A DNA stretch of 33,806 bases from a candidate division WOR-3 bacterium (GCA_903908785.1 CAIVTL010000278.1:1-33806); one strand, 5' to 3'. Counted from the stretch's first letter, positions 1,453-33,778 are shown. Numbers and translations: made by a program. The notes: generated from the letters alone by a model not told the origin.

Positions 1453-1494
1453 GACGAAGTCAGAAGGCAGAGGTCAGAAGCTAGAAGTCAGAAG
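1453..1494. repeat. STR block, 6 x 7 bp (GACGAAG TCAGAAG GCAGAGG TCAGAAG CTAGAAG TCAGAAG)
   Basis: Phase-perfect heptamers read directly. Intergenic, between the first nqr gene and nqrB. Confidence 0.9.
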
Positions 1495-1518
1495 TGTGGG
1501 AGCGGAGGCCGGAGCGGC

Positions 1519-2616
1519 ATGAGCAAACTGCTGCACGCGTTGGTCGCGCGGTTGAACGGGCTGACGGCGAAGGGGCCGCTGAAGCGGCTGCAACCGGTGA
1601 CCGAGGCGCTCGACGAAGCGCTGCTCGGCACGGACAAGACCGCGAAGGCCGCGCCCTTCCTCTCCGACGGCATGGACGTGAAGCGAATGATGTCGCTCGT
1701 CATCATCGGGCTTGTCCCGGCAACGCTTGCCGGCATCTACTTCTACGGCTGGCGCGTGGTCGCGATGATTGTTACTTCATACGCGGTCGGCGGCATGGTC
1801 GAAGTCGCCTTCGCGATGGCGCGCCGCAAGCCGATTCACGAGGGCTTCCTGGTGACCGGGCTGATTTTCCCGCTCATCCTGCCCCCTACGACCCCGCTCT
1901 GGATTGTCGCGGTAGGCGTGTTCTTCGGCGTGTTCTTCGGCAAGGAAGTCTTCGGCGGGACCGGCCGGAATATCTTCAACCCGGCGCTCGTGGGCCGGCT
2001 GTTCATCAGTCTCGCGTTCCCGAGCCACTTCGCGACGATGTGGGGCAAGATGCACTGGGGCGGGGCGGGCGGCTTCGTCCATTGGACCGTTGACGCCGTA
2101 ACCCAGGCCACGCCCTTGATTGACTTCAAGGGCGCGCACATGATATCAACCGACCCGCTGTCGCTGTTTATCGGCCACACGCCCGGCTGCGTCGGGGAGA
2201 CGTTCCGTATCGGTATCATCCTCGGAGGTCTGTTCATCATCGTGATGCGGGCCGGGGACTGGCGGGTGCCGGTCGCGTACCTGGGCAGCGTCGTGGTCAC
2301 GGCGCTCGCCCTGCACGGTATCGTGCCGGACCGGGTCGCGCCGGTCTGGTTTCAACTCCTGTCCGGCGGGCTCCTGTTCGGCGCTTTCTTCATGGCCAAC
2401 GACCCGGTTACATCGCCCTACACATTCACGGGCCGCTGGATTTACGGCATCGCGCTCGGGGTGCTGACCGTGCTGATACGGGCGATATCCGGCCTGCCTG
2501 AGGGCGTGATGTTTGCCATCCTGCTGATGAATGCCGTCGTGCCCCTCATCGACATGATGGTGGTGGGCGCGGCCTACAAGAAGGCGACGACCCGGGTTCG
2601 CCGCTGGGCGGCCTGA
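1519..2616 (+). CDS. nqrB: Nqr subunit B / RnfD-like polytopic membrane subunit
   Basis: Multi-TM protein with RnfD/NqrB-like conserved stretches (GKEVFGGTGRNIFNPALVGR, DAVTQATPL, FFMANDPVTSP). ATG-1519 is preceded by GGAGG at 1504-1508. The ORF-track start at 1417 overlaps the upstream gene and reads through a repeat block. Confidence 0.85.
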   Translation: MSKLLHALVARLNGLTAKGPLKRLQPVTEALDEALLGTDKTAKAAPFLSDGMDVKRMMSLVIIGLVPATLAGIYFYGWRVVAMIVTSYAVGGMVEVAFAMARRKPIHEGFLVTGLIFPLILPPTTPLWIVAVGVFFGVFFGKEVFGGTGRNIFNPALVGRLFISLAFPSHFATMWGKMHWGGAGGFVHWTVDAVTQATPLIDFKGAHMISTDPLSLFIGHTPGCVGETFRIGIILGGLFIIVMRAGDWRVPVAYLGSVVVTALALHGIVPDRVAPVWFQLLSGGLLFGAFFMANDPVTSPYTFTGRWIYGIALGVLTVLIRAISGLPEGVMFAILLMNAVVPLIDMMVVGAAYKKATTRVRRWAA

Positions 2617-3200
2617 TGGCGAAGATGAAACTTGGCCGCAAGCTGCTGGAAATGCTCTTCATCGTCGGGCTGGGACTGGTTTCGGTCGCCATGCTGCTGG
2701 CGGCACAGAGCTATGCCGCCCCGGCGGTCAGGCGCTTCCAAATGCTCCGCCTGCGGACCAGCATCCTTGGGGCCGCGGGTGTCGCGACGGCGCCGGCCGA
2801 GGTGAACGGCATCTTCGAGGCGCGCGTCACGGAGGCACGGGGCAACGGCGCGACCTATTACCGCGTTGACAGTCTCGTTGTGTACGAATTCAAGGGCCGG
2901 GGACTCTGGGGCCCGGTCGAGGGCGTCATCACGCTCGACTCGGGCCTGACCCGTATCAGGAGCGTGCGCGTCCTCGTGCAGGAGGAAACTCCTGGTCTCG
3001 GCGACCGCATCAAGGACCCCGCGTACCTCGTCACCTACCAGAACAAGACCGCGCTTGAACCGCTGGTGCTGGCAATGCGCCATCAAGCGGTCGAGGCCAA
3101 CGAGGTTGACGCCATTTCCGGCGCGACGCTCAGTTCCGAGGCCCTGCTCGTTATTGTCGGCGACGCGGTCGCACAGCTGCGGCAGGCGATGGGAAAGTGA
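2616..3200 (+). CDS. nqrC: Nqr subunit C / RnfG-like FMN-binding subunit
   Basis: N-terminal TM helix plus an FMN_bind domain. Flavinylation motif DAISGATLSS (SGAT codons at 3116-3127). The ATG overlaps the nqrB stop (TGATG). Confidence 0.8.
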   Translation: MAKMKLGRKLLEMLFIVGLGLVSVAMLLAAQSYAAPAVRRFQMLRLRTSILGAAGVATAPAEVNGIFEARVTEARGNGATYYRVDSLVVYEFKGRGLWGPVEGVITLDSGLTRIRSVRVLVQEETPGLGDRIKDPAYLVTYQNKTALEPLVLAMRHQAVEANEVDAISGATLSSEALLVIVGDAVAQLRQAMGK

Positions 3201-3207
3201 GCGGAAG

Positions 3208-3837
3208 GTGAACTTCCGGAAGCTAGCCTACACCCGGCCGTGGCGGGTTTTCATCACCGGCTTCTTCAAAGAGAACGCCGTCTGCTACCAGGTGCTCGGC
3301 CTCTGCTCGACGCTCGCGGTCTCCAACAAGATGGAGAACGCGGTGGCGATGGGCGCGAGTGTGGTATTCGTCATGCTGGTGTCGTCCGCCGTCATCTCCC
3401 TGCTGCGCCGGGTGATCCCGGTCCAGTACCGCATCATCACGTACATGATTGTTACTTCGACTTTCGTCATCATCATTGACCATTTCCTCAAGGCCAACTT
3501 CCCGACAATCAGCGGCCAACTCGGCCCATACGTCGGCCTGATTATCACCAACTGCATCGTTATGGGCCGGCAGGAGGCCTTCGCCATCAAGAACGGTGTC
3601 GGGCTTTCCATCCTCGACAGCCTGGGCGCGGCCCTGAGCTACAGTTACGTACTGGTCGGCATCGCCGCGGTGCGCGAGTTCCTCGGGTTCGGCAGTCTGC
3701 TCGGCGTCAAAGTCACGCCGCCGCACTTCGAGAACTGGGTGGTAATATCCATGGCGCAGGGCGCGTGGTTTGTGATGGCGATTTTCGTCTGGGGCTTCCG
3801 GCGCATAGCGAAGCTGAAGCCCCTGGAACAGGAGTAG
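3208..3837 (+). CDS. nqrD: Nqr subunit D / RnfE-like membrane subunit
   Basis: FKENAVCYQVLGLCSTLAVS...ITNCIVMGR is typical of NqrD/RnfE. GTG-3208 is the first in-frame start after the nqrC stop. The ORF-track start at 3055 would overlap nqrC by 146 nt. Confidence 0.8.
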   Translation: MNFRKLAYTRPWRVFITGFFKENAVCYQVLGLCSTLAVSNKMENAVAMGASVVFVMLVSSAVISLLRRVIPVQYRIITYMIVTSTFVIIIDHFLKANFPTISGQLGPYVGLIITNCIVMGRQEAFAIKNGVGLSILDSLGAALSYSYVLVGIAAVREFLGFGSLLGVKVTPPHFENWVVISMAQGAWFVMAIFVWGFRRIAKLKPLEQE

Positions 3838-3840
3838 AAC

Positions 3841-4431
3841 ATGCACCTGAACCCGCTGGTCCTCCTGGTCGCGGCGATATTCACCCACAACATCGCCCTG
3901 ACCTACCTGCTCGGCATGTGCCCGATGATGGCCATGTCGCGCCGCATCAACACCTCGGTCGGCATGGGCCTCGCCGTCATGTTCGTCACCGCGGTCACCG
4001 CGCCCATCGACTGGGTCATCTACAACAAAGTTCTTGTCCCGACGCACTCCGAAGTCATGATGCTCCTTGTCTTCATCATCGTCATCGCCGCCGTGGTCCA
4101 GTTGCTCGAACTCCTGATGCGCCGGTTCCTGCCCGCGCTGCACGCCGGGTTCGGGCCATTCCTGCCGCTGGTTACCGTCAACACCACCATTTTCGCGGTT
4201 TCGATATTCTCGGTCATGCGCAACTACAACCTCTGGCAGAGCACGGCATTTGCGGTTGGCTCGGGCGCGGGCTGGGCCCTGGCAATCATCCTCATCGCTG
4301 GAGTCAGAAACCGGGTTCAGCTCGTCAGCGACGTGCCGGCGGACCTGCGCGGGGCCGGCATCACGATGATAATCGCCGGCATTCTTGCGCTCAGCTTCAT
4401 CGGTTTCTCGGGTATGGTGGCAGTACAATAG
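3841..4431 (+). CDS. nqrE: Nqr subunit E / RnfA-like membrane subunit
   Basis: 6-TM protein. IFTHNIALTYLLGMCP and LPLVTVNTTIF are NqrE/RnfA-type motifs. It starts 4 nt after the nqrD stop. Confidence 0.85.
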   Translation: MHLNPLVLLVAAIFTHNIALTYLLGMCPMMAMSRRINTSVGMGLAVMFVTAVTAPIDWVIYNKVLVPTHSEVMMLLVFIIVIAAVVQLLELLMRRFLPALHAGFGPFLPLVTVNTTIFAVSIFSVMRNYNLWQSTAFAVGSGAGWALAIILIAGVRNRVQLVSDVPADLRGAGITMIIAGILALSFIGFSGMVAVQ

Positions 4432-4466
4432 GATGAAGGACAAAGGCGGAAGGACCAAGACGGAAG
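4432..4466. repeat. STR block, 5 x 7 bp (GATGAAG GACAAAG GCGGAAG GACCAAG ACGGAAG)
   Basis: Starts 1 nt after the nqrE stop. Intergenic. Confidence 0.85.
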
Positions 4467-4476
4467 GGGCACGGCC

Positions 4477-5580
4477 GTGATAACCATGCTGGTGATGGCC
4501 GGGCTGCTCATCACCGTGGCGGTCGTGCTGCTCGTGGCCGAGCGCATCCTCATCAGCTATGGCGAGTGCTCAGTTACCATCAACGACAAGCAGTGCATCC
4601 AGGTCGAAGGTGGCGAGACCCTGCTCTCCGTCCTCAACCGTCACAAACTCTTCGTTCCTTCAGCTTGCGGGGGCAAGGCGACCTGCGGGTTCTGCAAGGT
4701 CGTGGTAAGGGGCGGGGCCGGCACAATCCTGCCGACGGAAGAAATATTCATCAACAAGGCCGAGCGCGAACTGGGCATGCGCCTCGCCTGCCAGGTCAGG
4801 GTCGAGCGGCCGGTCAGGGTCCAGATGCCGGAGACCCTGCTGGGCGCACGCGAGTATACCTCCGAAGTGCTGGCGGTGGAGCAGCTCACTTATGATACGC
4901 GGCTCATCCGGTTCGGGCTCAAAGGCGGCGATGAAGTCCACTTCAAACCCGGCCAGTACGTCCAACTCCTCGTGCCCGGTACGGACCAATATCGCGCCTA
5001 TTCAGTCGCCAGTCCTCCAAGCCGCGCTCTCGCCTCTCGCCTCTCGTCTCTCGTCTCTCCCGAGTTTGAGCTCATCATCCGTCGCGTGCCGGGCGGCCTC
5101 TGCACCGGCTGGATTCACAGCGCGGTCGAGAAGGGCGACGAAGTGCGATTCACCGGGCCGTTCGGCGACTTCTATCTCCACGAAGACTCGAACCGGGAAA
5201 TCGTGGCCATCGGCGGTGGCTCGGGAATGGCCCCGATGCGGTCCATCATCCTGCACCTGGCCGAGCAGGGCATGCCGCGCAAGGTGACCCTCTTCTTCGG
5301 CGCGCGCCGCCGGCGCGACCTCTTCTACGTCGCGGAGTTTCAGGCGCTCGAACGACTGTATCCGAACTTCCGCTATCTCCCGGCGCTTTCCGAGCCCCGA
5401 CCGGAAGACCACTGGACCGGCGAAACCGGGTTCATTACGCAGACCGTGCAGAAGCACATCGTGCCGGGCAGGGAAAGGGAGGCCGTGCTCTGTGGCCCGC
5501 CGCCGATGATTGACGCGGCCATGCGCGTGCTGCCGCGCATCGGCGTGCAACCCGAGCATACCTACTTCGACAAGTTCTGA
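4477..5580 (+). CDS. nqrF: Nqr subunit F (TM anchor + 2Fe-2S ferredoxin + FAD/NAD(P) reductase)
   Basis: N-terminal TM helix. 2Fe-2S motif SACGGKATCGFCK...ACQ. FAD motif YRAYSVAS. NAD motif GGGSGMAPMRS. GGAAGGGG lies 7 nt upstream of GTG-4477. A heptamer repeat (5028-5062) is inserted in frame just after the RxYS motif. Confidence 0.88.
   Translation: MITMLVMAGLLITVAVVLLVAERILISYGECSVTINDKQCIQVEGGETLLSVLNRHKLFVPSACGGKATCGFCKVVVRGGAGTILPTEEIFINKAERELGMRLACQVRVERPVRVQMPETLLGAREYTSEVLAVEQLTYDTRLIRFGLKGGDEVHFKPGQYVQLLVPGTDQYRAYSVASPPSRALASRLSSLVSPEFELIIRRVPGGLCTGWIHSAVEKGDEVRFTGPFGDFYLHEDSNREIVAIGGGSGMAPMRSIILHLAEQGMPRKVTLFFGARRRRDLFYVAEFQALERLYPNFRYLPALSEPRPEDHWTGETGFITQTVQKHIVPGREREAVLCGPPPMIDAAMRVLPRIGVQPEHTYFDKF
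5028..5062. repeat. STR block, 5 x 7 bp (CTCTCGC x2, CTCTCGT x2, CTCTCCC), inside nqrF
   Basis: Encodes roughly the LASRLSSLVS part of ...SRALASRLSSLVSPE..., between the RxYS motif and the next beta-strand. Confidence 0.9.
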
Positions 5581-5583
5581 GGC

Positions 5584-5617
5584 GGGAAATGGGACAAAAG
5601 GGACCAAAGAGACACAA
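5584..5617. repeat. STR block, 7-9 bp units (GGGAAAT GGGACAAAA GGGACCAAA GAGACACAA)
   Basis: Covers the start codon and the first 10 codons of menA. Confidence 0.75.
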
Positions 5618-6512
5618 GGCAGGCATCTGGCTGCGCGAGTTGCGCGCGCCGTTCTTCGTCGGCACGGTGATGCCCGCGGTCTTCGGCGCGGCCTACGCCC
5701 ACTACGCCGGCGCCGCGTTCAACTGGCCGCTGTTCGGCCTGACGATACTCGGCACCGTTCTCACCAACGCCGGCCTGAACATGACCAATGACTACTTCGA
5801 CCACAAGAGCGGCGATGACGACCTGACCCCGGCCACGCCGGTGTCCGGCGGGAGTAAGGTTATCCAGGAGGGGCTACTGAAGCCGCGGCAGGTACTGGCC
5901 GCCGGTATTGCCTGTCTCGCACTTGCCGCAGTAGTCGGCCTGTATCTCAATGCCGTGACCGGCGGGCGCGTGCTGCTGATTGTTGGCATCGTCGGGATGG
6001 TAATAGCGTGGTTCTATACCGCGCCGCCGCTGAAGTTCGGGCACCGCAGCGGGGTGGGCGAGGTGGTCTGCGTGCTCGGGTGCGGGCCGGTAATTGCGTT
6101 CGGGGCGTTCTTTGTGCAGGCGCGGGTATTTTCGTGGGCGGCGGTGTTTGCCAGTCTTCCCATCGGACTGTTGATGGGTCTGGTGCTCTTCATCAACGAG
6201 TTCCACGACGTACACGCGGACGGGGCCGTGGGCAAGCGGACTTTGGTGGTCGCGCTCGGCACCGGGGCCGCGTCTTTCGTGCTCGCTTTCACGCTGGCGG
6301 CCACCTATCTGCTGACAGTCGTGCTCGTGGTTCTGAATATCCTTGCGCCTGCGTCGTTGTTCGCACTGGTGACCCTGCCGCTGGCTGTATTCGCGGTAAT
6401 CCGGGCCCGGCGCTATCACGCCGAGTCGCCGAAACTGCTGCCGGCGAACTTCGCGGTCATCGGCACGCACCTGCTCTTCGGCGCGATTCTCACCCTGGTG
6501 GCGGCATTATGA
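5589..6512 (+). CDS. menA: UbiA-family prenyltransferase, MenA-like (1,4-dihydroxy-2-naphthoate polyprenyltransferase)
   Basis: 8-9 TM helices. NDYFDHKSGDD and NEFHDVHADGAVGKRTL are Asp-rich UbiA/MenA motifs. The first 10 codons (MGQKGPKRHK) lie inside a repeat block. Confidence 0.75.
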   Translation: MGQKGPKRHKAGIWLRELRAPFFVGTVMPAVFGAAYAHYAGAAFNWPLFGLTILGTVLTNAGLNMTNDYFDHKSGDDDLTPATPVSGGSKVIQEGLLKPRQVLAAGIACLALAAVVGLYLNAVTGGRVLLIVGIVGMVIAWFYTAPPLKFGHRSGVGEVVCVLGCGPVIAFGAFFVQARVFSWAAVFASLPIGLLMGLVLFINEFHDVHADGAVGKRTLVVALGTGAASFVLAFTLAATYLLTVVLVVLNILAPASLFALVTLPLAVFAVIRARRYHAESPKLLPANFAVIGTHLLFGAILTLVAAL

Positions 6513-7387
6513 ACGGTGTGGGTCGGATACTTGCGCCCATCGAGGCCGCTCTGGCCGCGGTCGAAGAGACCATGGCCCGCCGCAATAATCCCGGCCTCGA
6601 AGTGCTTGCCGGGGGGAAGCGACTGCGCCCCGCGCTCCTCTTGTTCGCCGCCGGGGCGGCCGGGCACGGAGAACACGGACGGACACGGACGAACACAGAC
6701 GGACACGGGCAGGCAATGGCCGACGCGGTTTTGCTGGCGGCCGCGGTAGAGATGGTCCACACGGCATCGCTGATTCACGACGACGTGATTGACGAGTCGA
6801 GCGAGCGACGGAAAGGCGCGGCTCTCCACAAGGTCATCGGGACCCGGGCAGCCATCATCCTGGCCGACTATCTGTTCGTGCAGGGCCTGGCATTACTGGA
6901 ATCGGTCAAACGAACCAGCTTGGTTCCCGAGGTCGTCCGCGAGGTCTTGGTGATGTGTGAAGGGCAATGGCTAGAGATGAAAGTCGCGGCGGGCGCAACC
7001 TGTACCGAGCGACAGTACCATGAGGTAATCGAGAAGAAGACCGCGGCCCTGTTCGCGTTCTGCTGCCGGGCCGGCGGGCGGTTGCGGGGAGCCGATGCCG
7101 CGGAGTTGGCCGCGCTGGATGAGTTCGGCCGGAACTTCGGCTTCGTGTTCCAGTTGCTCGACGATGCGGAGGACATGGGGGAGGGAGAGAGGAAGAAAGG
7201 GAGTAAGAGAGTGAGGGCGGAACAGAACAGTATTGAGCGGGCGATTGCCCAATGCGGCGGACGGCGATACCTGCGCCGAAGCGCGCTGGAATTCGCCCGG
7301 CGGGCTCGGACCGCGGCGCGGAAGATCGCCAACCCGGTGGCCCGGCGAGGCATGATCCGGCTACTGGAATCTGTAGCGGAGGGGTAA
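6509..7387 (+). CDS. Polyprenyl diphosphate synthase (trans-IPPS family)
   Basis: KRLRPALLLF, LIHDDVIDES (first DDxxD) and FQLLDDAEDM (second DDxxD). ATG-6509 overlaps the menA stop (ATGA). The ORF-track N-terminus (6008-6508) is an out-of-frame read through menA. Two repeat blocks are inserted in frame. Confidence 0.75.
   Translation: MNGVGRILAPIEAALAAVEETMARRNNPGLEVLAGGKRLRPALLLFAAGAAGHGEHGRTRTNTDGHGQAMADAVLLAAAVEMVHTASLIHDDVIDESSERRKGAALHKVIGTRAAIILADYLFVQGLALLESVKRTSLVPEVVREVLVMCEGQWLEMKVAAGATCTERQYHEVIEKKTAALFAFCCRAGGRLRGADAAELAALDEFGRNFGFVFQLLDDAEDMGEGERKKGSKRVRAEQNSIERAIAQCGGRRYLRRSALEFARRARTAARKIANPVARRGMIRLLESVAEG
6662..6710. repeat. STR block, about 5 x 10 bp (GAACACGGAC GGACACGGAC GAACACAGAC GGACACGGGC), inside the polyprenyl synthase gene
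   Basis: Encodes GHGEHGRTRTNTDGHG, just upstream of the first DDxxD helix. Confidence 0.85.
7177..7230. repeat. Purine-rich degenerate repeat (GGGAGAG/GGAAGAA/AAGAGAG...), inside the polyprenyl synthase gene
   Basis: Encodes GEGERKKGSKRVRAEQN, directly after the second DDxxD motif. The periodicity is weaker than in the other blocks. Confidence 0.5.
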
Positions 7388-9142: not shown

Positions 9143-9373
9143 CGCCCGCGCCCGACAGCGGAAGCCCCGGATATGCGGTCGGGGCCCATGGCATCAGGCA
9201 GAGCGCCCAGAACCGGTTCCAAACGAGGCGGCGCGCCCGGCTGGCATGAAATGTGATACCTTGCGTAGAGATGGTACTGCGCCTTCAGAGGTCGGTTGCT
9301 GACCGTTCGGACGGGTCGGTCTGGCATGATACCAGCATACGAGGATATGGACGCTTACAAACGAGGAGGTAGA

Positions 9374-19812: not shown

Positions 19813-19824
19813 GGTTTCCTCCCC

Positions 19825-21652: not shown

Positions 21653-21668
21653 GGGAGACAGCCGCCGC

Positions 21669-21697
21669 TTGACATCCGTGCCGGGCTGCCGCATTAT
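21669..21697 (+). promoter_or_regulatory. Sigma70-like promoter (TTGACA-17-CATTAT) for paralogs 3-5
   Basis: Consensus -35 box, about 47 nt upstream of ATG-21745. Confidence 0.45.
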
Positions 21698-21744
21698 GTT
21701 CTAGCGGCCAGGGGTATTCTCCGGCCGCAGATTGCGAGGCGAAC

Positions 21745-23304: not shown

Positions 23305-23310
23305 GCGAAG

Positions 23311-27531: not shown

Positions 27532-28704
27532 GTGACTGAACAACATAAGCCGGTCGCCGTTGCCCTGCTTTCCGGCGGGCTGGATTCGACGCTGGCGGCA
27601 AAGGTGATTCTGGAGCAGGGTATCACGGTTATCGGTATCAACTTCGCCGGGGCATATTGCCCGCGGCCGCTTGCGGGCAAGAGCCGCGCGGAGAAGGCGG
27701 CGGAGAAGCTGGGCATCGAACTCGTGACCCTGCCGATTGACGCGGAGTTCATCGCGATGGTAAAGAACCCGCGACACGGCCGGGGCAGGAACATGAACCC
27801 GTGCATTGACTGCCATACGTTGATGATACGCAAGGCGTGGGCATGGGGACAGACCGAGCCGGAATCCAAAACCCAAAACCCAAAACCTAAGAGCCAGAGA
27901 GATGAACCACCGATGCACTGTCGGACAGGGGCCTCGGCGGCCAACACGGATAACCGGGCAGATGTCTCCGAGAAAACTATCTGTGTTCATCAGTGTCCAT
28001 CTGTGGTTAGCTGGTATGACCGAGCGGATTTCGTCATCACCGGCGAGGTGCTGGGGCAGCGGCCGATGTCGCAGAACCGGAACGCGCTTAACACAGTGGC
28101 CAGCTGGTCCGGCGTGGGAGAGCGGCTGCTTCGGCCGATGTCGGCGAAACTGCTCAACCCAACTGCGCCTGAGCAGGAGGGCCTGGTTGACCGCGAACGG
28201 TTGCTGAACATCGAGGGCAGGCAGCGGAATCGCCAGATGGCGCTGGCCGAGAAGTATGGCATCAAGGACTACCCGTCGCCGGCCGGCGGGTGTCTCTTGA
28301 CCGAGAAGGTCTATTCGAAGCGGCTGGCCGAGGCGTTCGACCACGGTGAGGATTCGCTTGAGATAGTCGAACTGCTTTCACTGGGCAGGCATTTCCGCCT
28401 GCCTTCCGGCGCGCGGTTGGTCGTGGGGCGGGACGAGAGGGAGAACGACGAACTGCTGCGGCGTAAACCGGCGGGCGCGGTCGTGATTGACGCGGGCGAT
28501 TTGCCGGGACCAGTGGGAATACTCGCGAAGGGATCAAGGGATCAAGGGATCGAGGGATCGAGTGACGAAGCGTTGGCCGCGAGGATTTGCGCGCGGTTCA
28601 GCGACAAGCGGAAAGAGAAACTCGCGCGGGTCGTGATTGCGGGCGAGGCGGTTGACGTCGAGCCCGCGAGTGAAGAGGAATCGGCCCGGCTACTGATTGC
28701 GTGA
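27532..28704 (+). CDS. PP-loop (adenine-nucleotide alpha-hydrolase) ATPase, MnmA/ThiI-like thiolation-type enzyme
   Basis: VALLSGGLDST PP-loop close to the N-terminus. NPCIDCH, FVITGEVLGQRPMSQ and YPSPAGGCLLTE are also present. An in-frame foreign segment of about 50 aa (repeat block plus the 107-bp mosaic element, 27865-28009) and an octamer repeat (28530-28561) interrupt the protein. Confidence 0.6.
   Translation: MTEQHKPVAVALLSGGLDSTLAAKVILEQGITVIGINFAGAYCPRPLAGKSRAEKAAEKLGIELVTLPIDAEFIAMVKNPRHGRGRNMNPCIDCHTLMIRKAWAWGQTEPESKTQNPKPKSQRDEPPMHCRTGASAANTDNRADVSEKTICVHQCPSVVSWYDRADFVITGEVLGQRPMSQNRNALNTVASWSGVGERLLRPMSAKLLNPTAPEQEGLVDRERLLNIEGRQRNRQMALAEKYGIKDYPSPAGGCLLTEKVYSKRLAEAFDHGEDSLEIVELLSLGRHFRLPSGARLVVGRDERENDELLRRKPAGAVVIDAGDLPGPVGILAKGSRDQGIEGSSDEALAARICARFSDKRKEKLARVVIAGEAVDVEPASEEESARLLIA
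27865..27899. repeat. STR block, 5 x 7 bp (TCCAAAA CCCAAAA CCCAAAA CCTAAGA GCCAGAG)
   Basis: In frame in the PP-loop ATPase gene (SKTQNPKPKSQR). It directly abuts mosaic element copy 2. Confidence 0.85.
27903..28009. repeat. 107-bp mosaic palindromic element, copy 2 (inverted, with one module transposed)
   Basis: The reverse complement aligns to copy 1 end to end. The exception is the 27-bp module CGCTGTCGGACAGGGGCCGCAGCGGCC, which sits on the other side of the 45-bp AACAC...GTGTT module and is flipped. Confidence 0.85.
28530..28561. repeat. STR block, 4 x 8 bp (GGGATCAA x2, GGGATCGA x2)
   Basis: In frame in the PP-loop ATPase gene, encoding GSRDQGIEGS. Confidence 0.9.
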
Positions 28705-29133: not shown

Positions 29134-29160
29134 GCCATCGGCCGCGACGCGCGTCCGGTA

Positions 29161-29195
29161 ACTGCAAACTGCAAACCGGTCACTGCAAACTGGCC
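29161..29195. repeat. STR block, 5 x 7 bp (ACTGCAA ACTGCAA ACCGGTC ACTGCAA ACTGGCC)
   Basis: Intergenic, immediately upstream of the smc promoter. Confidence 0.85.
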
Positions 29196-29200
29196 TCTGC

Positions 29201-29238: not shown

Positions 29239-32200
29239 GTGCGAATAAAAGAGCTCCAGCTCATCGGTTTCAAGTCTTTCCAGGACAAAGCGACGCTGCG
29301 TTTCTCGCCGGGCCTGAACGCGGTCATCGGGCCGAACGGCTGCGGCAAGACCAACATCCTCGACGCATTGCGCTGGGTGCTGGGCGAGCAGTCGTTCACC
29401 ATGCTCCGCTGCGCGAAGAACGAGGACCTGATATTCGGCGGCACGGCCACGGTAGCGCCGGTGAACTACGCCGAGGTGAAGTTGGTGATGGATGACGTGG
29501 AACAGGGGTCAGGGGTCAGGGGTCAGGGTCCAGGGATGACAGAGGTGGAGATACGGCGCAGGTACTTCCGGTCGGGCGAGAGCGAGTACTACCTGAACAA
29601 GCAGCCGTGCCGGTTGCGTGACATCCAGGAGGTCTTTTTCTCGGCCGGGGCCGGCACCAAGGCCTATTCGATATTCGACCTGCGCCAGATGCGCGAGATT
29701 ATCTCCGGCAACATCCGGAAGATGTTCGAGGAGGCGGCGAGCCTGGCGAAGTACAACGACGCCAAGGCCGACTGCCGGCGCAAGCTCGAACTGACCGCGG
29801 GCGACCTGATGCGCCTCGATGACATCATCGCTGAGCGCGAGCGGTTCGTGCGCAGCCTGCAGCGGCAGGCCGGCCGGTTGCGGGCGTTCGACAAGCTGAA
29901 GACCGAAGAGAAGGGACTGCGGCTGCTGGAATTGAAGGCCGACTACGAGGCGATGCAGCGGGACCTCGGGCGGGCTCAAGCCGACACCGAGGCGCTGGAG
30001 CAGGCCGAGGCCGCGCGGGTGGCGGACATCCGGCGGCTGGATGAGGAGCTTAAGATTCAGCGCGGCCGGGTGCGCGACCTGCAGGCGCTGAAGGATGAGC
30101 TGGCCGCCAAGGTGCAGGCCCAGCGGCAGGTGTTGTCCGACCTCGAAGGTCGGGACCTGCTGGCGCGGCAGCGGATAGAGTTTCTTGCCAGCGCGACCGG
30201 CCAGGCCGAGACCGAGCGCGCCGCGCTGGCGGAGAGCGTGCTCCAGATGGAGCAGACGTTTGAGCAGACTCTTGCTCGACTGGCCGAGGCGAACGAGCGC
30301 CAGGCGCGGGCGCAGGAGCAGCTCGAACGCCAGCGGGCGCTGGTGCAGTCGCTCGAGGAGCAACTGTACGGACTGCGCAGCCACGAGACCGCGCTTCGGC
30401 AGCAGGTCCAGGAGCGGCAGGAACAGGAGCAGGGCGGCCGGCAGGAACTGGCAAGGCTCGATGCGACGATTGACAACCAGCGCGAGACCGTGGAGCGGCT
30501 GGCCGGAGAGGCGAGCGCGGTCCGAGAACGAAGAACGAGGAACGAAGAACAAAGAACGGAAATCGGGCTGAAGGTCGCGGCGGCGGCCGCGGCCATCGAG
30601 ACGGGCCGGAAACGACTCGAAGCATTGCGCGCCGAGTTCGTCCAGGCCCGGGACGACCGGAACCGGCTGCGCGCGGATGATGCCAGGCTGCGCGAGGAGC
30701 GGGCCGGGCTGGAAACCGATTTGGCGGTGCTGCGCGCCGGGATTGCGAGCGAGCAGGCGGAGGTGAGCCGAGCCGCGCTGGCCGAGGCGTTGCGCGGCGA
30801 GGCGGGCGCGTTTCTCGACGTGACGTCCGGGTGGGAGCGGGCGTGCGAGGCAGCGCTGTACGCGGTGGTTGATTTTCTGGTCGCAGACCTGCCCGGGCCG
30901 GACAAGCTCGGGGAACTGGCCGAGAAGCGCCCGGACCTGCGGTTCGGCTTCCTAGTGGAAGAAAGGGTTCAAGGGTTCAGGGGTTCAGGGGTCCAGGCGG
31001 AGGAGCCCGGAGACCTGCCCTCAGACCCGGCCGTCATTGGACCACTGTCGGGGTTTGTGAAGGTGAAGGCGGAGGCGCCGGCCGCGCTGCACGAGCTGGT
31101 CAATGGGTGCCTCGTGGCCGCGAGCGCGGGCGAGCTGGGCCGGCTGGCGCAGCAGTTCCCGGGCTGGTCGTTTGTGACGCAGGACGGCGTGTGCCGGTTC
31201 TCGGACGGGCGGCTGGTAATTGAAGGGCGCGAGAGCGGGCGGCTGAGCGCGGGGCGGGCGATTCACGACAAGAGCGAGCGGCTCGGCGCGGTCGATGCGG
31301 AACTGGTCGGGATTGCGACGAGCGAGGCTGCGTTGGCCCGGCGCCGCGAGGAGCTGGAAAAGGAAATCGGGCAGGTTGAGTTCGAGGTCGGCGAGACCGG
31401 GCGGGAGAAGGCTTCGCTCGATGCGTCGCTGGAGCTGATTGCCGCGACCGGCGAAGATATGGGCCGAGACGTGGAACGGCTCAGGGCCGCGCAGTATGCG
31501 GCCGCGGCCCAGAAGCGGGCGGTCGAGGAGAAGCGGGCCGCGCTCGCCGCAGCGGGCGGCGAGCTTGAGACCCGGACCCAGGCCGGCACCGGCGCGCTCA
31601 AGCAGGCCGAGGAGGAAGCACGCAAACTCGAAGAGCAGGTCAAGGCCGGGCTGGATTTGTCGTCGCAGGCGCTGGCCGAGCTCTCCGACGCGCGGCAGGC
31701 CGGATCCCGGCTTGAGGCCGAGAATGCGTTCGCCAAGCGCCAGATTGACGACGGCCGGCGCCGGCTGCACGAGTACGCGGCGGCAGCGGAGCGCAACCGC
31801 GATGAGAGCGCGGGGCTGGAGAAGGAAATCGGCGACCGGGCCGCGGAGATTGAGCAGGCGCGTTCCATCCTGACCGACCTTGACGCGGAAACCGGGAAGC
31901 TGCACATCGGCGAACTGGCACGGGCCGAGGAGGCGCTGGAGGCCAACCTCGCCGAACTGCGCCAGTCGCAGGAGCGAAACCAGAACGTCTTGATGGAGCA
32001 ACGGCTGAAGCTGTACGAGCTGAACCAGCGGTTTGCCGCCATCAGCGAAGAGGCGAAGTCGAGCTATGGAACCGACATCGCCGCGTTCCAGCCCGAGGCG
32101 GCGGAGGGCGCCGAGGAACGGCTGGCACAAGTGCGGCAGCGGCTCGAAGCGCTCGGGCAGGTGAACCCGCTGGCCGCGCAGGAGTACGCGCAGGAGAAGT

Positions 32201-32781
32201 CGGACCTGGAGAAACTGACGGTCCAGCGCGAGGACGTAGCCGCGGCCAAGGTGAACCTCGAAAGCACCCTGACCGAGATTGACCGGCACGCGCAGGAGCA
32301 ATTCGCCGTGACCTACAGCGAGGTGCGCGGCCACTTCCGCGAGATATTCCAGGCCCTGTTCCTCGAGGGCGAGGCGGACCTGGTGATGACGAACGAAGCC
32401 AACCCGCTGGAATCGGAAATCGGCATCATCGCCAAGCCGAGAGGCAAGACCCCAAAGCGGCTCGAACAGCTCTCCGACGGCGAGAAGGCGCTGCTCGCGG
32501 TGTCACTGTTGTTCGCGTTCTACCGGGTGAAGCCCGCGCCGTTCTGTTTTCTCGACGAGGTGGACGCGCCGCTGGACGACGCCAACGTCGGCCGGTTCGC
32601 CGACTATCTCAAGGGGATATCGGACAAGACCCAGGTGGTCATCATTACGCATAACCGGCTGTCCGTCGAGCGCGCCGACGTCGTGTTCGGCGTCACCGCG
32701 GAGCAGCCCGGCATCTCGACGCTCGTGTCGGTCAGCCTGGCTGAATACCGCCGGCAGGCACAGCCGCCGACTGCGAGCTAG
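29239..32781 (+). CDS. smc: Chromosome partition protein SMC
   Basis: Walker A GPNGCGKTN, long coiled coils, a hinge region, signature LSDGEKALLAVSL, and Walker B FCFLDEVDAPLD. 1180 aa with a GTG start. Three repeat blocks lie in frame. Confidence 0.92.
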   Translation: MRIKELQLIGFKSFQDKATLRFSPGLNAVIGPNGCGKTNILDALRWVLGEQSFTMLRCAKNEDLIFGGTATVAPVNYAEVKLVMDDVEQGSGVRGQGPGMTEVEIRRRYFRSGESEYYLNKQPCRLRDIQEVFFSAGAGTKAYSIFDLRQMREIISGNIRKMFEEAASLAKYNDAKADCRRKLELTAGDLMRLDDIIAERERFVRSLQRQAGRLRAFDKLKTEEKGLRLLELKADYEAMQRDLGRAQADTEALEQAEAARVADIRRLDEELKIQRGRVRDLQALKDELAAKVQAQRQVLSDLEGRDLLARQRIEFLASATGQAETERAALAESVLQMEQTFEQTLARLAEANERQARAQEQLERQRALVQSLEEQLYGLRSHETALRQQVQERQEQEQGGRQELARLDATIDNQRETVERLAGEASAVRERRTRNEEQRTEIGLKVAAAAAAIETGRKRLEALRAEFVQARDDRNRLRADDARLREERAGLETDLAVLRAGIASEQAEVSRAALAEALRGEAGAFLDVTSGWERACEAALYAVVDFLVADLPGPDKLGELAEKRPDLRFGFLVEERVQGFRGSGVQAEEPGDLPSDPAVIGPLSGFVKVKAEAPAALHELVNGCLVAASAGELGRLAQQFPGWSFVTQDGVCRFSDGRLVIEGRESGRLSAGRAIHDKSERLGAVDAELVGIATSEAALARRREELEKEIGQVEFEVGETGREKASLDASLELIAATGEDMGRDVERLRAAQYAAAAQKRAVEEKRAALAAAGGELETRTQAGTGALKQAEEEARKLEEQVKAGLDLSSQALAELSDARQAGSRLEAENAFAKRQIDDGRRRLHEYAAAAERNRDESAGLEKEIGDRAAEIEQARSILTDLDAETGKLHIGELARAEEALEANLAELRQSQERNQNVLMEQRLKLYELNQRFAAISEEAKSSYGTDIAAFQPEAAEGAEERLAQVRQRLEALGQVNPLAAQEYAQEKSDLEKLTVQREDVAAAKVNLESTLTEIDRHAQEQFAVTYSEVRGHFREIFQALFLEGEADLVMTNEANPLESEIGIIAKPRGKTPKRLEQLSDGEKALLAVSLLFAFYRVKPAPFCFLDEVDAPLDDANVGRFADYLKGISDKTQVVIITHNRLSVERADVVFGVTAEQPGISTLVSVSLAEYRRQAQPPTAS
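29505..29535. repeat. STR block (GGGGTCA x3, GGGTCCA, GGG), inside smc
   Basis: Encodes GSGVRGQGPG in the N-terminal head domain. It has five G-runs. Confidence 0.9.
30526..30560. repeat. STR block, 5 x 7 bp (GAACGAA GAACGAG GAACGAA GAACAAA GAACGGA), inside smc
   Basis: Encodes ERRTRNEEQRTE in the coiled coil. Confidence 0.9.
30965..30996. repeat. STR block, 4 x 8 bp (GGGTTCAA GGGTTCAG GGGTTCAG GGGTCCAG), inside smc
   Basis: Encodes RVQGFRGSGVQ in the hinge-proximal region. Confidence 0.9.
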
Positions 32782-32784
32782 TCC

Positions 32785-33666
32785 GTGAATCCATTCGCTA
32801 GAATCGGGGCCGGCTTCAAGAAGCTGGCGAGCGGCCTTTCCAAGACCCGCCAGGTGTTCCAGCGGCTGCTGGTCGCGGCCAATACCGAGGAACTGGAAGA
32901 GGCTTTGCTCGCCGCCGATGTCGGGGTCAAGGCTACTGAAATCCTGGTAGACAAGGTGAAGCGTGCGTCCGGCGACCGGCGCCTGGTCCTTGAAGCTGAA
33001 ATCGCCCGCCTGCTTTCCCCACCCCAATCCCTAGCCCCCAGTCCCCAATTCCCTCCTTTGGTGGTCATGATTGTCGGCGTGAACGGGTCGGGCAAAACCA
33101 CGACCGTGGGCAAGCTCTGCCGGCTGTTTGCCGACCAGGGGCAGCGGGTGGTTGTTGCCGCGGCAGATACGTATCGTGACGCTGCGGCCGAGCAACTCGG
33201 GATTTGGGCAACGCGCGCCGGGGTCGAGATTGTCTCGTCCGTACAGGGGCAGGACGCGGCCGCGGTTGCGTTCGACGCGATTCAGAAGGCGGCGCTGAAG
33301 AAGATGGATGTCGTGCTGGTTGATACCGCGGGCCGGCTCCACACGCGCAAGGACCTGATGGACGAGGCCGTGAAGATAAAGCGGGTCTGCGCCAAAGTGA
33401 AGGCCGGGGCCCCGGACGAGGTCTGGCTGGTGCTCGACGCAACCGTGGGGCAGAACGGCCTGCGTCAGGCCGCGGCGTTCAACGAGCAACTCGGGCTGAC
33501 CGGCCTCGTCGTCACCAAACTCGACGGCACGGCCAAGGGCGGGGTGCTGATTCCGATTGTCATGGAACTGGGCGTGCCCGTGAAGTTCATCGGTACCGGC
33601 GAGACTCTCGAAGACATCGAGCCGTTTGAGCCGGAAGCCTACGCGAAGGCGCTGTTTGAGGAGTGA
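32785..33666 (+). CDS. ftsY: Signal recognition particle receptor FtsY
   Basis: NG domain motifs GVNGSGKTTT, DTAGRLH, TKLDGTAKGG and FIGTGE. The GTG lies 3 nt after the smc stop. A C-rich heptamer repeat sits in frame just before the P-loop. Confidence 0.9.
   Translation: MNPFARIGAGFKKLASGLSKTRQVFQRLLVAANTEELEEALLAADVGVKATEILVDKVKRASGDRRLVLEAEIARLLSPPQSLAPSPQFPPLVVMIVGVNGSGKTTTVGKLCRLFADQGQRVVVAAADTYRDAAAEQLGIWATRAGVEIVSSVQGQDAAAVAFDAIQKAALKKMDVVLVDTAGRLHTRKDLMDEAVKIKRVCAKVKAGAPDEVWLVLDATVGQNGLRQAAAFNEQLGLTGLVVTKLDGTAKGGVLIPIVMELGVPVKFIGTGETLEDIEPFEPEAYAKALFEE
33017..33056. repeat. C-rich STR block (CCCCACC CCAATCC CTAGCCC CCAGTCC CCAATTC CCTCC), inside ftsY
   Basis: Encodes PPQSLAPSPQFPP, directly before the G-domain P-loop strand VVMIVGVNGSGKT. 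Confidence 0.85.
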
Positions 33667-33778
33667 GGAGTAGGTAGTAGGTAGGAGATAGTAGGTAGGA
33701 CGAGGAGTGTCCCTCCTACCTCCCACCTCCTACCTTCTACCTTCTACCTCCTACCTCCTACCTCCTACCTCCTACCTG
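33666..33778. repeat. Inverted pair of GGTAGGA / TCCTACC heptamer arrays (long imperfect hairpin) after ftsY
   Basis: Left arm GAGGAGTAGGTAGTAGGTAGGAGATAGTAGGTAGGACGAGGAG. Right arm CTCCTACCTCCCACCTCCTACCTTCTACC(TCCTACC)n. Probable terminator-like structure. Confidence 0.85.

Follow-up and report, generated by a model that had tools for sequence, protein, structure and literature searches.

Short, degenerate, heptanucleotide-dominated tandem-repeat blocks at high density in a candidate division WOR-3 contig

We analysed a 33,806-nt stretch of DNA (the window). The proteins closest to its own carry the name candidate division WOR-3 bacterium and are 94% identical. The short degenerate tandem-repeat blocks described there by a first-pass annotation were confirmed as a real observation. 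Comparisons of orthologous loci showed that the arrays grow in place out of local proto-repeats, that units within arrays evolve in concert, and that arrays overwrite linkers while linker length stays unchanged. We consider it fairly probable that the blocks are long simple-sequence repeats, heptanucleotide-dominated and less often of 8 nt, arising in place in the WOR-3 chromosome. The interpretation given by the annotation is partly supported overall; it had called the origin of the blocks unexplained, a question that growth in place and concerted evolution at orthologous loci now answer in part.

Abundance, period and units of the arrays

Loci were defined as merged TRF rows with a period of 5-12 and at least 3 copies. 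The results showed 25 merged loci, 792 bp in total, in the 34-kb window; 100 dinucleotide-preserving shuffles gave 0.49 on average and never more than 3. The blocks thus stood up to comparison with composition-matched shuffles as real, dense, phase-perfect and degenerate (69-96% matches within arrays), as had been claimed. About five of the loci (14192, 14970, 15386, 30576 and 27390) are ordinary GC-rich or codon repeats and not members. Density was 7.4 loci per 10 kb in the window, compared with 0-1.9 in Thauera and Zoogloea loci of similar GC and about 0.8 in a 758-kb pool of unrelated contigs; for the window and its close relatives together it was about one array per 1.5 kb (9.3 per 10 kb). 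Array intensity varied more than 10-fold between WOR-3 lineages, with 1 array in 12 kb of L015 and 0 in 21 kb of L106. TRF called arrays at seven of the positions named by the annotation (1453, 8438, 13844, 15574, 27262, 29505 and 30965), and only the block at 33017 was too degenerate for a call. Placement was both between and within genes, as first described: 10 of the 25 blocks lay in non-coding DNA, which makes up about 5.7% of the window, and the remaining 15 were in frame within genes, with the reading frame kept in all, a pattern that suggests a filter on placement by selection.

In 363 kb of related WOR-3 contigs, period 7 was found at 22.0 per 100 kb versus 1.3 in the 758 kb of controls, and period 8 at 5.8 versus 0.4. 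These were the only enriched periods, and the heptanucleotide was the most abundant unit length (80 of 138 arrays at period 7, 21 at period 8). Periods 9-10 showed no overall enrichment in WOR-3 over control contigs, with a few in-frame cases, so the proposed unit lengths of 7-10 hold for 7 and, less so, for 8. Periods 6 and 9 were likewise not enriched, though genes would tolerate both better, indicating mutational bias rather than selection. Exact two-copy 7-mer duplications reached 38 per 100 kb in high-density WOR-3 contigs, 17 in low-density WOR-3 contigs and 6.9 in controls; this excess of bare duplications points to a duplication process and not to insertion.

The 13 heptamer arrays in the window carry 13 different units. 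Recurrence of similar units inside the window was at chance (3 pairs versus 1.2 expected, P about 0.1), two of the pairs being the two arms of hairpins, and no core motif common to the arrays was found; the suggestion of one family with recurring sub-families was not supported. Between the window and L107, 8 similar unit pairs lay at non-orthologous sites versus 1.9 expected (P = 0.002), and no excess was found between the window and unrelated controls. The strong strand skew noted earlier was real relative to 35-nt windows. AT skew and purine skew were at the level of random 7-mers and GC skew was modestly above it (0.51 versus 0.35, p = 0.006), so that reiteration of a short unit accounts for most of the skew, which is not a special property.

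The arrays and their orthologous sites

The arrays of the nqr operon, prenyl and CbiQ region are as follows; here and below, coordinates are those of the window and no strand is assigned.

1453-1497, GAAGTCA-type heptamer array of about 6 units, nqrA/nqrB spacer (TRF period 7, 5.7 copies, without indels)
4435-4467, (GAAGGAC AAAGGCG)x2.4, period 7/14, nqrE/nqrF spacer (TRF)
5027-5059, CTCTCGC x4.7, in frame in nqrF, encoding part of RALASRLSSLVSP after ASPPS (TRF)
5587-5619, 9-mer AAAAGGGAC x3.7, over the first codons of a UbiA-family gene (TRF)
6657-6708, 10/20-mer CGGACGGACA x5, in frame in the polyprenyl synthase gene (TRF)
7190-7222, weak GGAGRAAG-like purine-rich block in the polyprenyl synthase gene (without a TRF call in the window)
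7870-7906, CGAAGTC-type heptamer x5, NusG_II/Hpre-CbiQ junction (TRF)
8440-8473, 9-mer GTCGGACCG x3.8, in-frame linker from Hpre_diP_synt_I to CbiQ domains (TRF; direct-repeat family D13)

At the nqrA/nqrB site the genes overlap in L015, where the spacer is absent, and L016 has a shorter related array; no RNA structure was found for 1453-1497 (z = +0.7). The nqrE/nqrF array is missing from L015 and L016, and L020 has (TAAGGAT GAAGGCG)x2, in which GGAC has become GGAT in both 14-mers, indicating concerted change. NqrF has a baseline length of 356 aa, and many relatives carry differing inserts at the 5027-5059 site: the array is almost identical in L016, missing from L015, and of AGAGTCC type in L020. 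The flanking gene is only 64-75% identical in DNA between the window and L016, although the array is nearly identical; conservation beyond the surrounding gene is not predicted by neutral turnover and counts against growth in place. The 5587-5619 site has a diverged homologue in L016 and a CACGGACGGG-type array at the equivalent place in L020. Protein alignment showed additional residues at 6657-6708 compared with L015. The orthologue of 7190-7222 in L016 (12699-12725) was called by TRF at period 8, and L015 has a gap of 11 aa there. Judging from an in-frame ATG at 7847, the 7870-7906 array probably forms codons 8-20 of the downstream gene; a 42-nt stretch at this junction is identical in L016.

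Further arrays lie after a sigma gene and at other intergenic sites.

13844-13876, 8-mer GGGTTCNG x4, left arm of a hairpin 3' of an ECF sigma gene (TRF)
13884-13909, 8-mer CCAGAACC x3.2, right arm of the 13844-13909 hairpin (TRF and fold)
15574-15613, AGAGGCT/AGAAGCT heptamer array, intergenic (TRF period 7, 4.4 copies)
15644-15676, GTTTAGA/GTTTGGG heptamer array, period 7/14, intergenic (TRF)
17898-17924, GAATAGT heptamer x3.9, intergenic, solo copy of a dispersed GAATNGT-type arm (TRF)

The two arms of the first pair were predicted to fold together at -46.2 kcal/mol (z = -3.4), and folding found no pairing of 15644-15676 with 15574-15613 (z = -0.3). The latter array forms direct-repeat family D10 with 1448-1492 and 7862-7892. 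GAATNGT-like multi-unit strings were also found at non-orthologous sites, namely at 3600 in L016 and in the smc/ftsY elements of L021, L025 and L027.

A four-helix-bundle gene and a PP-loop gene carry the next arrays.

27262-27288, 9-mer GTCGGACNN x3, in frame in the four-helix-bundle (23S IVP-like) gene (family D13)
27295-27327, GCGCAA(GC) 6/14-mer array, left arm of an in-gene hairpin (TRF)
27341-27365, GCTTGA 6/12-mer x4, right arm of the in-gene hairpin, missing from L025 (TRF and fold)
27866-27887, CCAAAAC x3.1, in frame in the PP-loop/NFACT-R_2 gene, adjoining a mosaic-element copy (TRF)
28528-28559, 8-mer AAGGGATC x4, in frame in the PP-loop gene (TRF)

The 27262-27288 array, kept in L025, is 92% identical to 8440-8464 of the same family, and the hairpin arms beside it were predicted to pair at -36.1 kcal/mol (z = -4.5). 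The 27866 site is empty in five relatives, and the window insert of 49 nt has no visible local seed; at this codon L032 and L034 carry GCCAAAA, L021 GAATGCA and L039 GATTGCA. At 28528-28559 relatives have the 8-mer TCTTGGTG at equal length or the 7-mer CAGATTG.

The last group lies in and around smc and ftsY.

29160-29200, AACTGCA heptamer x4.7, intergenic, upstream of smc (TRF)
29503-29535, CAGGGGT x4.7, in frame near the SMC N-terminus (TRF)
30525-30558, AGAACGA x4.9, in frame in the SMC coiled coil (TRF)
30965-30997, 8-mer GGGTTCAG x4.1, in frame in a variable SMC linker (TRF)
33010-33050, weak degenerate CCCCANT heptamer array, FtsY N-G linker (no TRF call)
33657-33698, AGGTAGG/GAGGAGT heptamers x6, forming the left arm of the post-ftsY hairpin (TRF)
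33712-33785, CCTACCT heptamer x10.6, forming the right arm of the post-ftsY hairpin (TRF score 113, and fold)

At the SMC 29503 site ten relatives have only the proto-repeat CAGGGTGAGGGTCAG, and the window and L025 are expanded by about 15 nt. The 30525-30558 array aligns without gaps to non-repetitive sequence of 10 relatives, indicating length-preserving replacement. The 30965 array is common to L025, L032 and L034, and C-rich arrays, including its reverse complement, occur in L021, L023 and L031. The FtsY linker block is recognisable only through clean orthologous arrays of equal length (AAGCCCC x5 in L025, AAGTCCA x5 in L027); FtsY is 293 aa in most relatives, linker length being unchanged despite array turnover. 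Unit distances in this linker were 2.42 positions within an array, 3.83 at the same position across lineages and 4.06 between different positions. After ftsY, the stem in relatives is an ordinary terminator, AGTTAGC...GCTAACT. The arms are (AGTTAGG)11/(CCTAACT)4 in L025, (AGTTAGG)n...(CCTAACT)n also in L027, and (AGGTAGG)n...(CCTACCT)n in the window, so that T>G in one arm co-varies with A>C in the opposite arm. The window hairpin (33657-33785) was predicted to fold at -59.6 kcal/mol (z = -4.9). The smc/ftsY spacer holds inverted-array elements of 86 nt in L025 and 179 nt in L021, and the window has neither.

The annotation had also connected the heptamer GTCGGAC with a 107-bp mosaic element. 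GTCGGAC occurs 14 times versus 8.1 expected, and 8 times after removal of array copies, so this tie is due to chance. A different link, which the annotation had not seen, is that two relatives carry the 28-nt double-palindrome core of this element within arrays; in L032 it is inserted within the 30965-orthologous array.

Origin of the arrays

Heptanucleotides are described as the commonest prokaryotic long simple-sequence repeats, with polymerase slippage as the proposed cause (Mrazek 2007, as summarised via PMC4692102 and PMC4679880). Under growth in place, a mutational process would add or copy DNA in 7-nt steps, enlarging short local proto-repeats to arrays of 4-10 units; strand slippage, or out-of-register repair with gene conversion, are candidate processes. 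Units are continually homogenised, as the orthologous sites show, the periodicity staying while the unit sequence drifts, often with length preserved within genes; concerted evolution of this kind accounts for the differing units at one site among close relatives. Selection may then spare harmless arrays; those observed occupy operon spacers, N-terminal tails, inter-domain linkers, surface loops and terminator stems, and are always in frame and free of stop codons. Point mutation would afterwards erode them. A minority of arrays in addition look dispersed as arms of small hairpins or MITE-like elements. Besides the nqrF array, three observations count against growth in place: unit number did not change within one population (9 arrays, four assemblies); some arrays have no visible local seed, as in the PP-loop 27866 insert; and units recur above chance at non-orthologous sites across distant WOR-3 lineages, with GAATNGT-type multi-unit strings dispersed.

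The missing seeds and the recurring units would suit small mobile elements or their remnants, that is, ready-made arrays inserted by a transposase or recombinase with repeated hits in permissive loops and only secondary growth in place, an explanation that we regard as possible but rather unlikely. In these genomes the terminal repeats of MITEs consist of 8-10-nt tandem arrays whose solo copies occupy block sites; insertions without a seed occupy sites that relatives have empty (27866 in the PP-loop gene; 28168 in L025 and L021); the arm type of the inverted-array elements of L025 and L021, GAATNGT, returns at window 17898 and L016 3600; orthologous arrays differ in whether they contain the 28-nt palindromic core; and a Y1 transposase gene lies close to the nqr operon of L016. 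The unit sharing with L107 points the same way, but most arrays have a private unit and sharing within the genome is at chance. Most solo arrays lacked near-identical dispersed copies with defined ends, which were partly present for the inverted-array elements, for the GAATNGT arm and for the 107-bp element. Filled and empty site pairs exist, and no clear target-site duplication was called at their junctions, which are repetitive; common ends, like a core motif, were not found. Moreover, SMC 29503 and the post-ftsY stem are two clear cases of growth from pre-existing local sequence, and insertion does not yield the length-preserving replacement seen in SMC and FtsY. It is also conceivable, though we hold it unlikely, that the arrays are written by an active, lineage-variable activity (e.g. 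nick-and-extend, template-switching or reverse-transcription) that lays 7-nt units at breaks or hot spots, shares a limited WOR-3 unit vocabulary and cooperates with very small mobile pieces, the 28-nt core among them. If so, the more than 10-fold density gaps between close relatives would mark presence or absence of that activity.

Selection for function, as sites 5' of start codons for a regulator that binds single-stranded nucleic acid, terminator hairpins, G-quadruplex tracts or flexible protein linkers, seems to us improbable. Many intergenic arrays are purine-rich and lie immediately 5' of start codons, like the TAACTGA repeats of Beggiatoaceae; extended hairpins with co-varying arms were predicted for three paired arrays (z -3.4 to -4.9), of which two lie where a gene ends; the nqrF and NusG_II/Hpre arrays are conserved further than their flanks; and the CAGGGGT, GGGTTCAG and AAGGGATC arrays have four G-tracts, like Xanthomonas GGGAATC. 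However, the unit differs at nearly every locus, and at one locus among close relatives, making a sequence-specific binder unlikely. Many arrays are missing from close relatives without other change (L015, L106), solo arrays are unstructured, no Rfam family match was found, and the period enrichment extends into essential genes, where a regulatory role is implausible.

Hypermutable contingency loci, toggling genes through changes in unit number, are very improbable. Repeats of 7 bp drive phase variation of the HMW adhesins in Haemophilus, and tandem repeats likewise occur here near gene starts and within genes. The units are imperfect instead of perfect, housekeeping genes (nqrF, smc, ftsY) are hit and always in frame, and four assemblies from a single population (0.17% divergence, 36 SNPs) showed no change of unit number in any of 9 arrays. 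This constancy of copy number within a population indicates that the arrays are not phase-variation loci. An assembly or sequencing artefact can practically be dismissed: no evidence for such an origin of the blocks was found, and orthologous arrays recur at identical sites, with reading frames intact, in independent JGI, ENA, NCBI and Logan assemblies.

Comparison with known repeat systems

Elhai and colleagues are said to have described, in 2008, apparently mobile SDR sequences of about 21-27 nt inserted into other repeats of Nostoc punctiforme. By description only, the WOR-3 28-nt double-palindrome core, present or absent in orthologous arrays, is similar; this comparison covers the core element and not the arrays.

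The TAACTGA repeats of marine Beggiatoaceae, cyanobacteria and Bacteroidetes occur in 2-6 copies a few nt 5' of start codons (PMC4679880). They share with the WOR-3 arrays heptamer direct repeats upstream of start codons and a patchy phylogenetic distribution, but consist of a single unit, are almost exclusively intergenic and are a suggested binding site of a translational regulator. The multicopy elements of Geobacter metallireducens have four tandem heptanucleotides (GGACCGG, 49 copies), alongside octanucleotide and nonanucleotide classes that are paired across opposite strands (PMC2700814). The likeness extends to about four tandem units of 7-9 nt, genic and intergenic, with some opposite-strand pairs; in Geobacter, however, they form BLAST-detectable families of a single consensus, proposed to be regulatory, whereas WOR-3 units are mostly locus-private.

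The annotation had rightly named the heptameric STRR of cyanobacteria as the nearest phenomenon, in that both are heptamer tandem repeats, and had rightly doubted a cyanobacterial host. The STRR of heterocystous cyanobacteria, Nostoc GGGGA(T/C)T and Xanthomonas GGGAATC have period 7, lie mostly between genes near gene ends and include some hairpin-capable inverted pairs (PMC4692102). Period 7, some inverted pairs, and a conserved position with variable length and sequence between related species are shared with WOR-3, and the FtsY linker block contains the STRR heptamer CCCCAGT. In those systems a single consensus unit, or a small number of them, serves the whole genome, whereas almost all WOR-3 loci have a unit of their own. 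Identity with cyanobacterial STRR was rejected on the 13 units in 13 heptamer arrays, the single occurrence of CCCCAGT and the WOR-3 host. The G-quadruplex class of GGGNATC type (Xanthomonas, Nostoc), with at least four G3+ tracts at 7-nt spacing, was also rejected: reading of the sequence gave four G3+ tracts in only about 4 of 25 blocks (13844, 28528, 29503 and 30965), denoting G4 potential only.

The LSSR5-11 class comprises tandem units of 5-11 nt, heptanucleotides being the most abundant; as summarised there, it is found in free-living GC-rich bacteria, with many units per genome, and is read as a non-functional by-product of expansion by polymerase slippage (Mrazek, Guo and Shah 2007, via PMC4692102, PMC4679880). 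The WOR-3 blocks agree in heptanucleotide dominance, in their many different units and in having more head-to-tail units of 5-11 nt than composition predicts (25 loci versus 0.49 in shuffles, with period 7 17-fold over unrelated contigs). As to gain or loss of units by slipped strands, a further trait of the class, expansion from proto-repeats and concerted evolution were observed between lineages, and unit number was constant within one population. They differ in being short, degenerate and in many cases in frame in essential genes, at about 1 per 1.5 kb, and in belonging to a candidate phylum outside those surveys. We take the window density to be several-fold to tens-fold above published LSSR5-11 cases. 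The window extends to a new phylum, in extreme form, the excess of heptamer repeats already described for cyanobacteria, Xanthomonas and Geobacter.

Density and placement of the arrays

Tandem Repeats Finder (TRF) returned 48 rows for the window, and we merged rows of period 5-12 with at least three copies into loci. This gave 25 loci covering 792 bp, compared with a mean of 0.49 and a maximum of 3 loci in 100 dinucleotide-preserving shuffles. Genuine DNA sets a stricter standard than shuffled sequence does. In Thauera and Zoogloea, regions with a GC content like that of the window contained 0-1.9 such loci per 10 kb, and the window contained 7.4. The results confirm the dense short-period arrays that the first-pass annotation had described from the sequence. 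The blocks it had placed at 1453, 8438, 13844, 15574, 27262, 29505, 30965 and 33017 were all found there, that at 33017 being too degenerate for TRF. Roughly five of the 25 loci that TRF called fall outside the phenomenon, being GC-rich or codon repeats of the ordinary sort.

Ordinary repeats excluded from the phenomenon
14192: CGCGC repeat
14970: GGCCGGC repeat
15386: 12-mer repeat
27390: GC-rich or codon repeat
30576: CGCGGC repeat

The window has a GC content of 0.63, and its FtsY shares 94% identity with proteins labelled 'candidate division WOR-3 bacterium'. A scan of GTDB species representatives with NqrF returned nothing closer than 45% identity, and syntenic contigs were therefore drawn from metagenome collections. 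The set comprised L015 and L016-L019 for the nqr region, L020 for nqrF, L021 (GCA_026397595.1), L023 and L025-L049 for the SMC-FtsY region, and L105-L107 from more distant WOR-3 lineages. The gene map showed an nqrA-F operon, a UbiA-family prenyltransferase, a polyprenyl synthase, NusG_II, an Hpre_diP_synt_I-CbiQ fusion, ApbE, an FMN-binding protein, an ECF sigma/anti-sigma pair, a four-helix-bundle protein, a PP-loop/NFACT-R_2 protein, a DUF3795 protein, SMC and FtsY. Five tandem paralogous PQQ_2/PQQ-like beta-propeller genes (two minus-strand and three plus-strand) occupy 18010-26907 and share DNA segments of 60-84% identity (direct-repeat families D1-D9, D12, D14, D15 and D17). A perfect 20-nt AT-rich palindrome, ATATGTAGTATACTACATAT (17957-17976), lies in the 450-bp gap that precedes the propeller genes of the minus strand; it overlaps with a match resembling a promoter and could be an operator.

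Ten of the 25 blocks lie in non-coding DNA, which makes up about 1.9 kb (5.7%) of the window, and 15 lie within genes with the frame preserved in every case, so that the reported mixture of intergenic and in-frame blocks was borne out.

Blocks within genes
NqrF: surface insertion
UbiA-like and Hpre genes: N-terminal tails
Polyprenyl synthase: two sites
Hpre-CbiQ: linker
Four-helix-bundle gene: three sites
PP-loop gene: two sites
SMC: three sites
FtsY: N-G linker

Two architectures were observed, solo arrays and inverted pairs. Solo arrays had no structure as single strands (z about 0), whereas on folding three inverted pairs formed long hairpins with a bulge at every seventh position (z -3.4 to -4.9).

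Inverted-pair hairpins
13844/13884
27295/27341
33657/33712

The arrays recurred at matching positions in independent JGI, ENA, NCBI and Logan assemblies, and this position-for-position recurrence led us to reject an artefact. Across 21 kb, L016-L019, four assemblies of one population, were separated by 36 SNP columns and a single 48-bp non-repetitive indel, and unit number was unchanged in all nine arrays compared, which does not fit the definition of phase variation or contingency loci. The near-identical population pairs compared for indel spectra were either identical or non-overlapping.

Period, composition and unit vocabulary

Array periods were compared between 363 kb of WOR-3 DNA and 758 kb taken from unrelated contigs that the same scans had yielded. 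Period-7 arrays occurred at 22.0 versus 1.3 and period-8 arrays at 5.8 versus 0.4 per 100 kb, and no other period from 2 to 20 was clearly enriched in this comparison. Exact two-copy repeats were counted in dense WOR-3 DNA, sparse WOR-3 DNA and controls. Per 100 kb, 7-mers numbered 38, 17 and 6.9, 8-mers 12.7, 3.7 and 2.1, and 6-mers 88, 72 and 71, respectively; 9-mers were depleted if anything. Since periods of 6 and 9 would be far better tolerated in an approximately 94% coding genome, the preference for 7 and 8 looks like a property of the mutational process rather than of selection. The units, reported as 7-10 bp, are mainly 7 and some 8 bp, but the 9-10-mers amount to just a few in-frame cases without enrichment.

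The strong strand skew attributed to the blocks held against random 35-nt windows (|GC skew| 0.52 versus 0.17). As the composition of a tandem array is that of its unit, random 7-mers of the window served as the control, and against these AT skew and purine skew were no different, and only GC skew was modestly higher (0.51 versus 0.35, p=0.006). In the window, G exceeded C on the plus strand in 18 of 24 blocks; across all WOR-3 loci the ratio was 29:31 by an ORF-based transcription-strand test, which cannot be relied on where GC-rich DNA gives long spurious frames.

The 13 heptamer arrays of the window had 13 different consensus units. Three near-identical unit pairs were observed, where shuffling the units at matched composition predicted 1.2 (P about 0.1), and two of these were the arms of one hairpin, so that the proposed recurring sub-families were not supported. 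GTCGGAC, taken as a hint of an origin shared with the repeated mosaic element, occurred 14 times against 8.1 expected, with eight occurrences outside arrays, and has no such meaning. The first-pass interpretation was thus partly right: the dense blocks are real, the sub-families and the GTCGGAC link were not supported, and the unit range needed correction. The units were searched for a shared core motif, for instance a nickase site like GAGTC, but no 4-mer or 5-mer survived multiple-test correction, and scans for Rfam families, consensus terminators and promoters gave no relevant match.

Growth, replacement and homogenization among relatives

Array density ranged from 0 to about 16 per 10 kb across related lineages. 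In the near clade it was higher the closer a lineage's FtsY was to that of the window (rho 0.72 with identity, p=0.0008), at 9.3 per 10 kb for an identity of at least 90% and 2.0 below 90%. The complete genome CP070680 had 7 arrays in 21 kb around ftsY. The distant L107 (69% FtsY identity) was equally dense, with 13 arrays in 13 kb, and L106, also distant, had none in 21 kb. This indicates a patchy distribution and led us to reject a simple clade-specific recent burst.

Near 29503 in SMC, ten relatives carried a CAGGGTGAGGGTCAG-like two-unit proto-repeat, which in the window and L025 was expanded to (CAGGGGT)x4-5 and is some 15 nt longer. Downstream of ftsY, sparse lineages had an ordinary bidirectional terminator hairpin with the stem AGTTAGC...GCTAACT. 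In L025, L027 and L028 both stem arms were arrays, (AGTTAGG)4-11 and (CCTAACT)3-4, and in the window the arms were (AGGTAGG)6 and (CCTACCT)10, a unit change in one arm being mirrored by a complementary change in the other. These two sites show the whole series of array origin. Elsewhere, arrays took the place of non-repetitive sequence at constant length. One such array, AGAACGA x4.9 at 30525 in the SMC coiled coil, aligned gap-free with the KARLARNQEEVAATRQK-coding sequence of ten relatives. The FtsY linker, 293 aa long in most relatives, contained AAGCCCC x5, AAGTCCA x5, CGAAGTC x4, CAGAGTC x5 or CCCCANT x5 depending on the lineage, and was aperiodic in L037 and L039.

Units within one FtsY linker array differed on average at 2.42 of 7 positions (0.4-2 in clean arrays), same-position units between lineages at 3.83, and different-position units at 4.06. 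The array at the nqrE-nqrF junction was (GAAGGAC AAAGGCG)x2 in the window and (TAAGGAT GAAGGCG)x2 in L020. Four units occurred at 27866 in the PP-loop gene, with one or two substitutions at the unit level separating each from its neighbour in the series.

Units at PP-loop site 27866
CCAAAAC: window
GCCAAAA: L032, L034
GAATGCA: L021
GATTGCA: L039

Despite a DNA identity of 86%, the window and L021 differ in unit at four shared sites. Concerted evolution explains such differences between relatives, since homogenization and drift yield different units at shared sites with no need for replacement from outside. That length stays constant under homogenization suggests that conversion runs out of register, or that gains and losses are paired, and that within genes only outcomes that keep the frame survive.

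Origin of the arrays and comparison with known systems

The mechanism that we favour, and consider fairly probable, is a slippage or misaligned-conversion bias with a 7-nt step, combined with homogenization and selective filtering of the arrays. This reading allows a minority, secondary contribution from small mobile hairpin elements, to which several observations point. Some inserts occupy sites that are empty in relatives, with no visible local seed, for example the PP-loop insert at 27866 and those near 28168, which are a CACTAGAC array in L025 and a MITE of 96 nt in L021. Elements of inverted heptamer arrays lie between smc and ftsY in L021 (179 nt) and L025 (86 nt), and their GAATNGT-type arm recurs at 17898 in the window and 3600 in L016. 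The window and L107 share units (GAAGTCN, GCGCAA/GCTTGA and CCAAAAC/AATCCAA) at non-orthologous sites, eight versus 1.9 expected (P=0.002), with no such excess between the window and unrelated controls; this sharing could reflect dispersal or convergent constraint. Growth in place also does not account for the nqrF array, near-identical in the window and L016 though the surrounding recombinant tract is 64-75% identical.

Several further features of this DNA were observed. The inverted-array elements of L021 (5334-5512) and L025 (9900-9985) sit in the last smc codons, replace C-terminal SMC residues and bring a new stop codon; they are absent at 32765-32770 in the window. The mosaic element (about 107 bp) has two copies, both in frame, at the N-terminus of a CarboxypepD_reg protein (16610-16720) and in the PP-loop gene (27895-28010). 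They share a 44-nt core region (89% identical), and the next 45 nt, flanked by AACACRGAT/ATCYGTGTT, are inverted between copies (91% complementary), indicating a flipped internal module. A 28-nt double palindrome, CTGTCSGACAG-GGGCCGCNGCGGCC-AAC, occurs at 16641-16668 and 27918-27945 in the window, 2082-2109 in L021 and 12775 (minus strand) in L032. In L021 and L032 it stands alone within heptamer or octamer SMC arrays, whereas the orthologous arrays in the window, L025 and L034 lack it; this is an insertion polymorphism of a very small element, which seems to land in arrays. L025 carries a 1335-bp insertion (4990-6325, versus window 29201) between DUF3795 and smc, with an extra membrane-protein gene, bounded by a duplicated smc upstream region and AAGGTTA/TAACCTT hairpin arrays; a matching hairpin array lies in its DUF3795 gene. 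L016 has a Y1 (IS200/RAYT-like) transposase gene (2047-2730) a few kb upstream of the nqr operon, a candidate mobilizer of small palindromic repeats. Between its nqrD and nqrE lies a MITE-like insert (9335-9413) starting CCACAGGTTACGCAGATTACACAGAC, with 9-10-nt tandem units; this gap is just 3-4 nt in the window (3838-3840) and L015. The nqrC-nqrF tract (window 2400-5400) is 64-75% identical to L016 and 76-89% to L015, with flanks 83-91% identical to L016; this mosaic of identities indicates that WOR-3 lineages have recombined within the operon. L025 shows a comparable discordance in its PP-loop gene (63% aa identity versus 90% for SMC).

Why bacteria accumulate 7-base tandem repeats has been a question since the heptameric STRRs of heterocystous cyanobacteria and the 2007 survey of prokaryotic simple-sequence repeats (SSRs). 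The WOR-3 group is a good natural experiment, as the same sites can be traced as empty, proto-repeat, expanded and decayed, and comparing dense with sparse whole genomes could reveal a repair, replication or mobile-element gene tied to the 7-nt bias. NqrF, SMC, FtsY and further conserved proteins gain low-complexity peptides from the arrays. The arrays also fuse or extend gene calls, and annotation, alignments and phylogenies of these genomes will be distorted.

Our literature search found no relevant report on WOR-3 tandem repeats. As cited in PMC4692102 and PMC4679880, Mrazek et al. 2007 found heptanucleotides to be the commonest long SSRs in prokaryotes and proposed a tie to how long a stretch of DNA the polymerase holds. 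Cyanobacterial STRRs, Xanthomonas GGGAATC and Nostoc GGGGAYT repeats include some inverted pairs and are conserved in position and variable in sequence (PMC4692102); Beggiatoaceae have TAACTGA repeats 5' of start codons (PMC4679880); and Geobacter metallireducens has 49 four-heptanucleotide elements, intragenic and intergenic, with paired octa- and nonanucleotide classes (PMC2700814). The WOR-3 arrays fit the definition of a heptanucleotide-dominated long simple-sequence repeat but not that of STRRs, having neither a genome-wide unit nor a cyanobacterial host. They differ from these precedents in density, in unit diversity, in how many arrays lie in frame within essential genes, and in a clear record of in-place growth and concerted evolution. 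The kind is already known, and the WOR-3 arrays are a new, extreme case of it.
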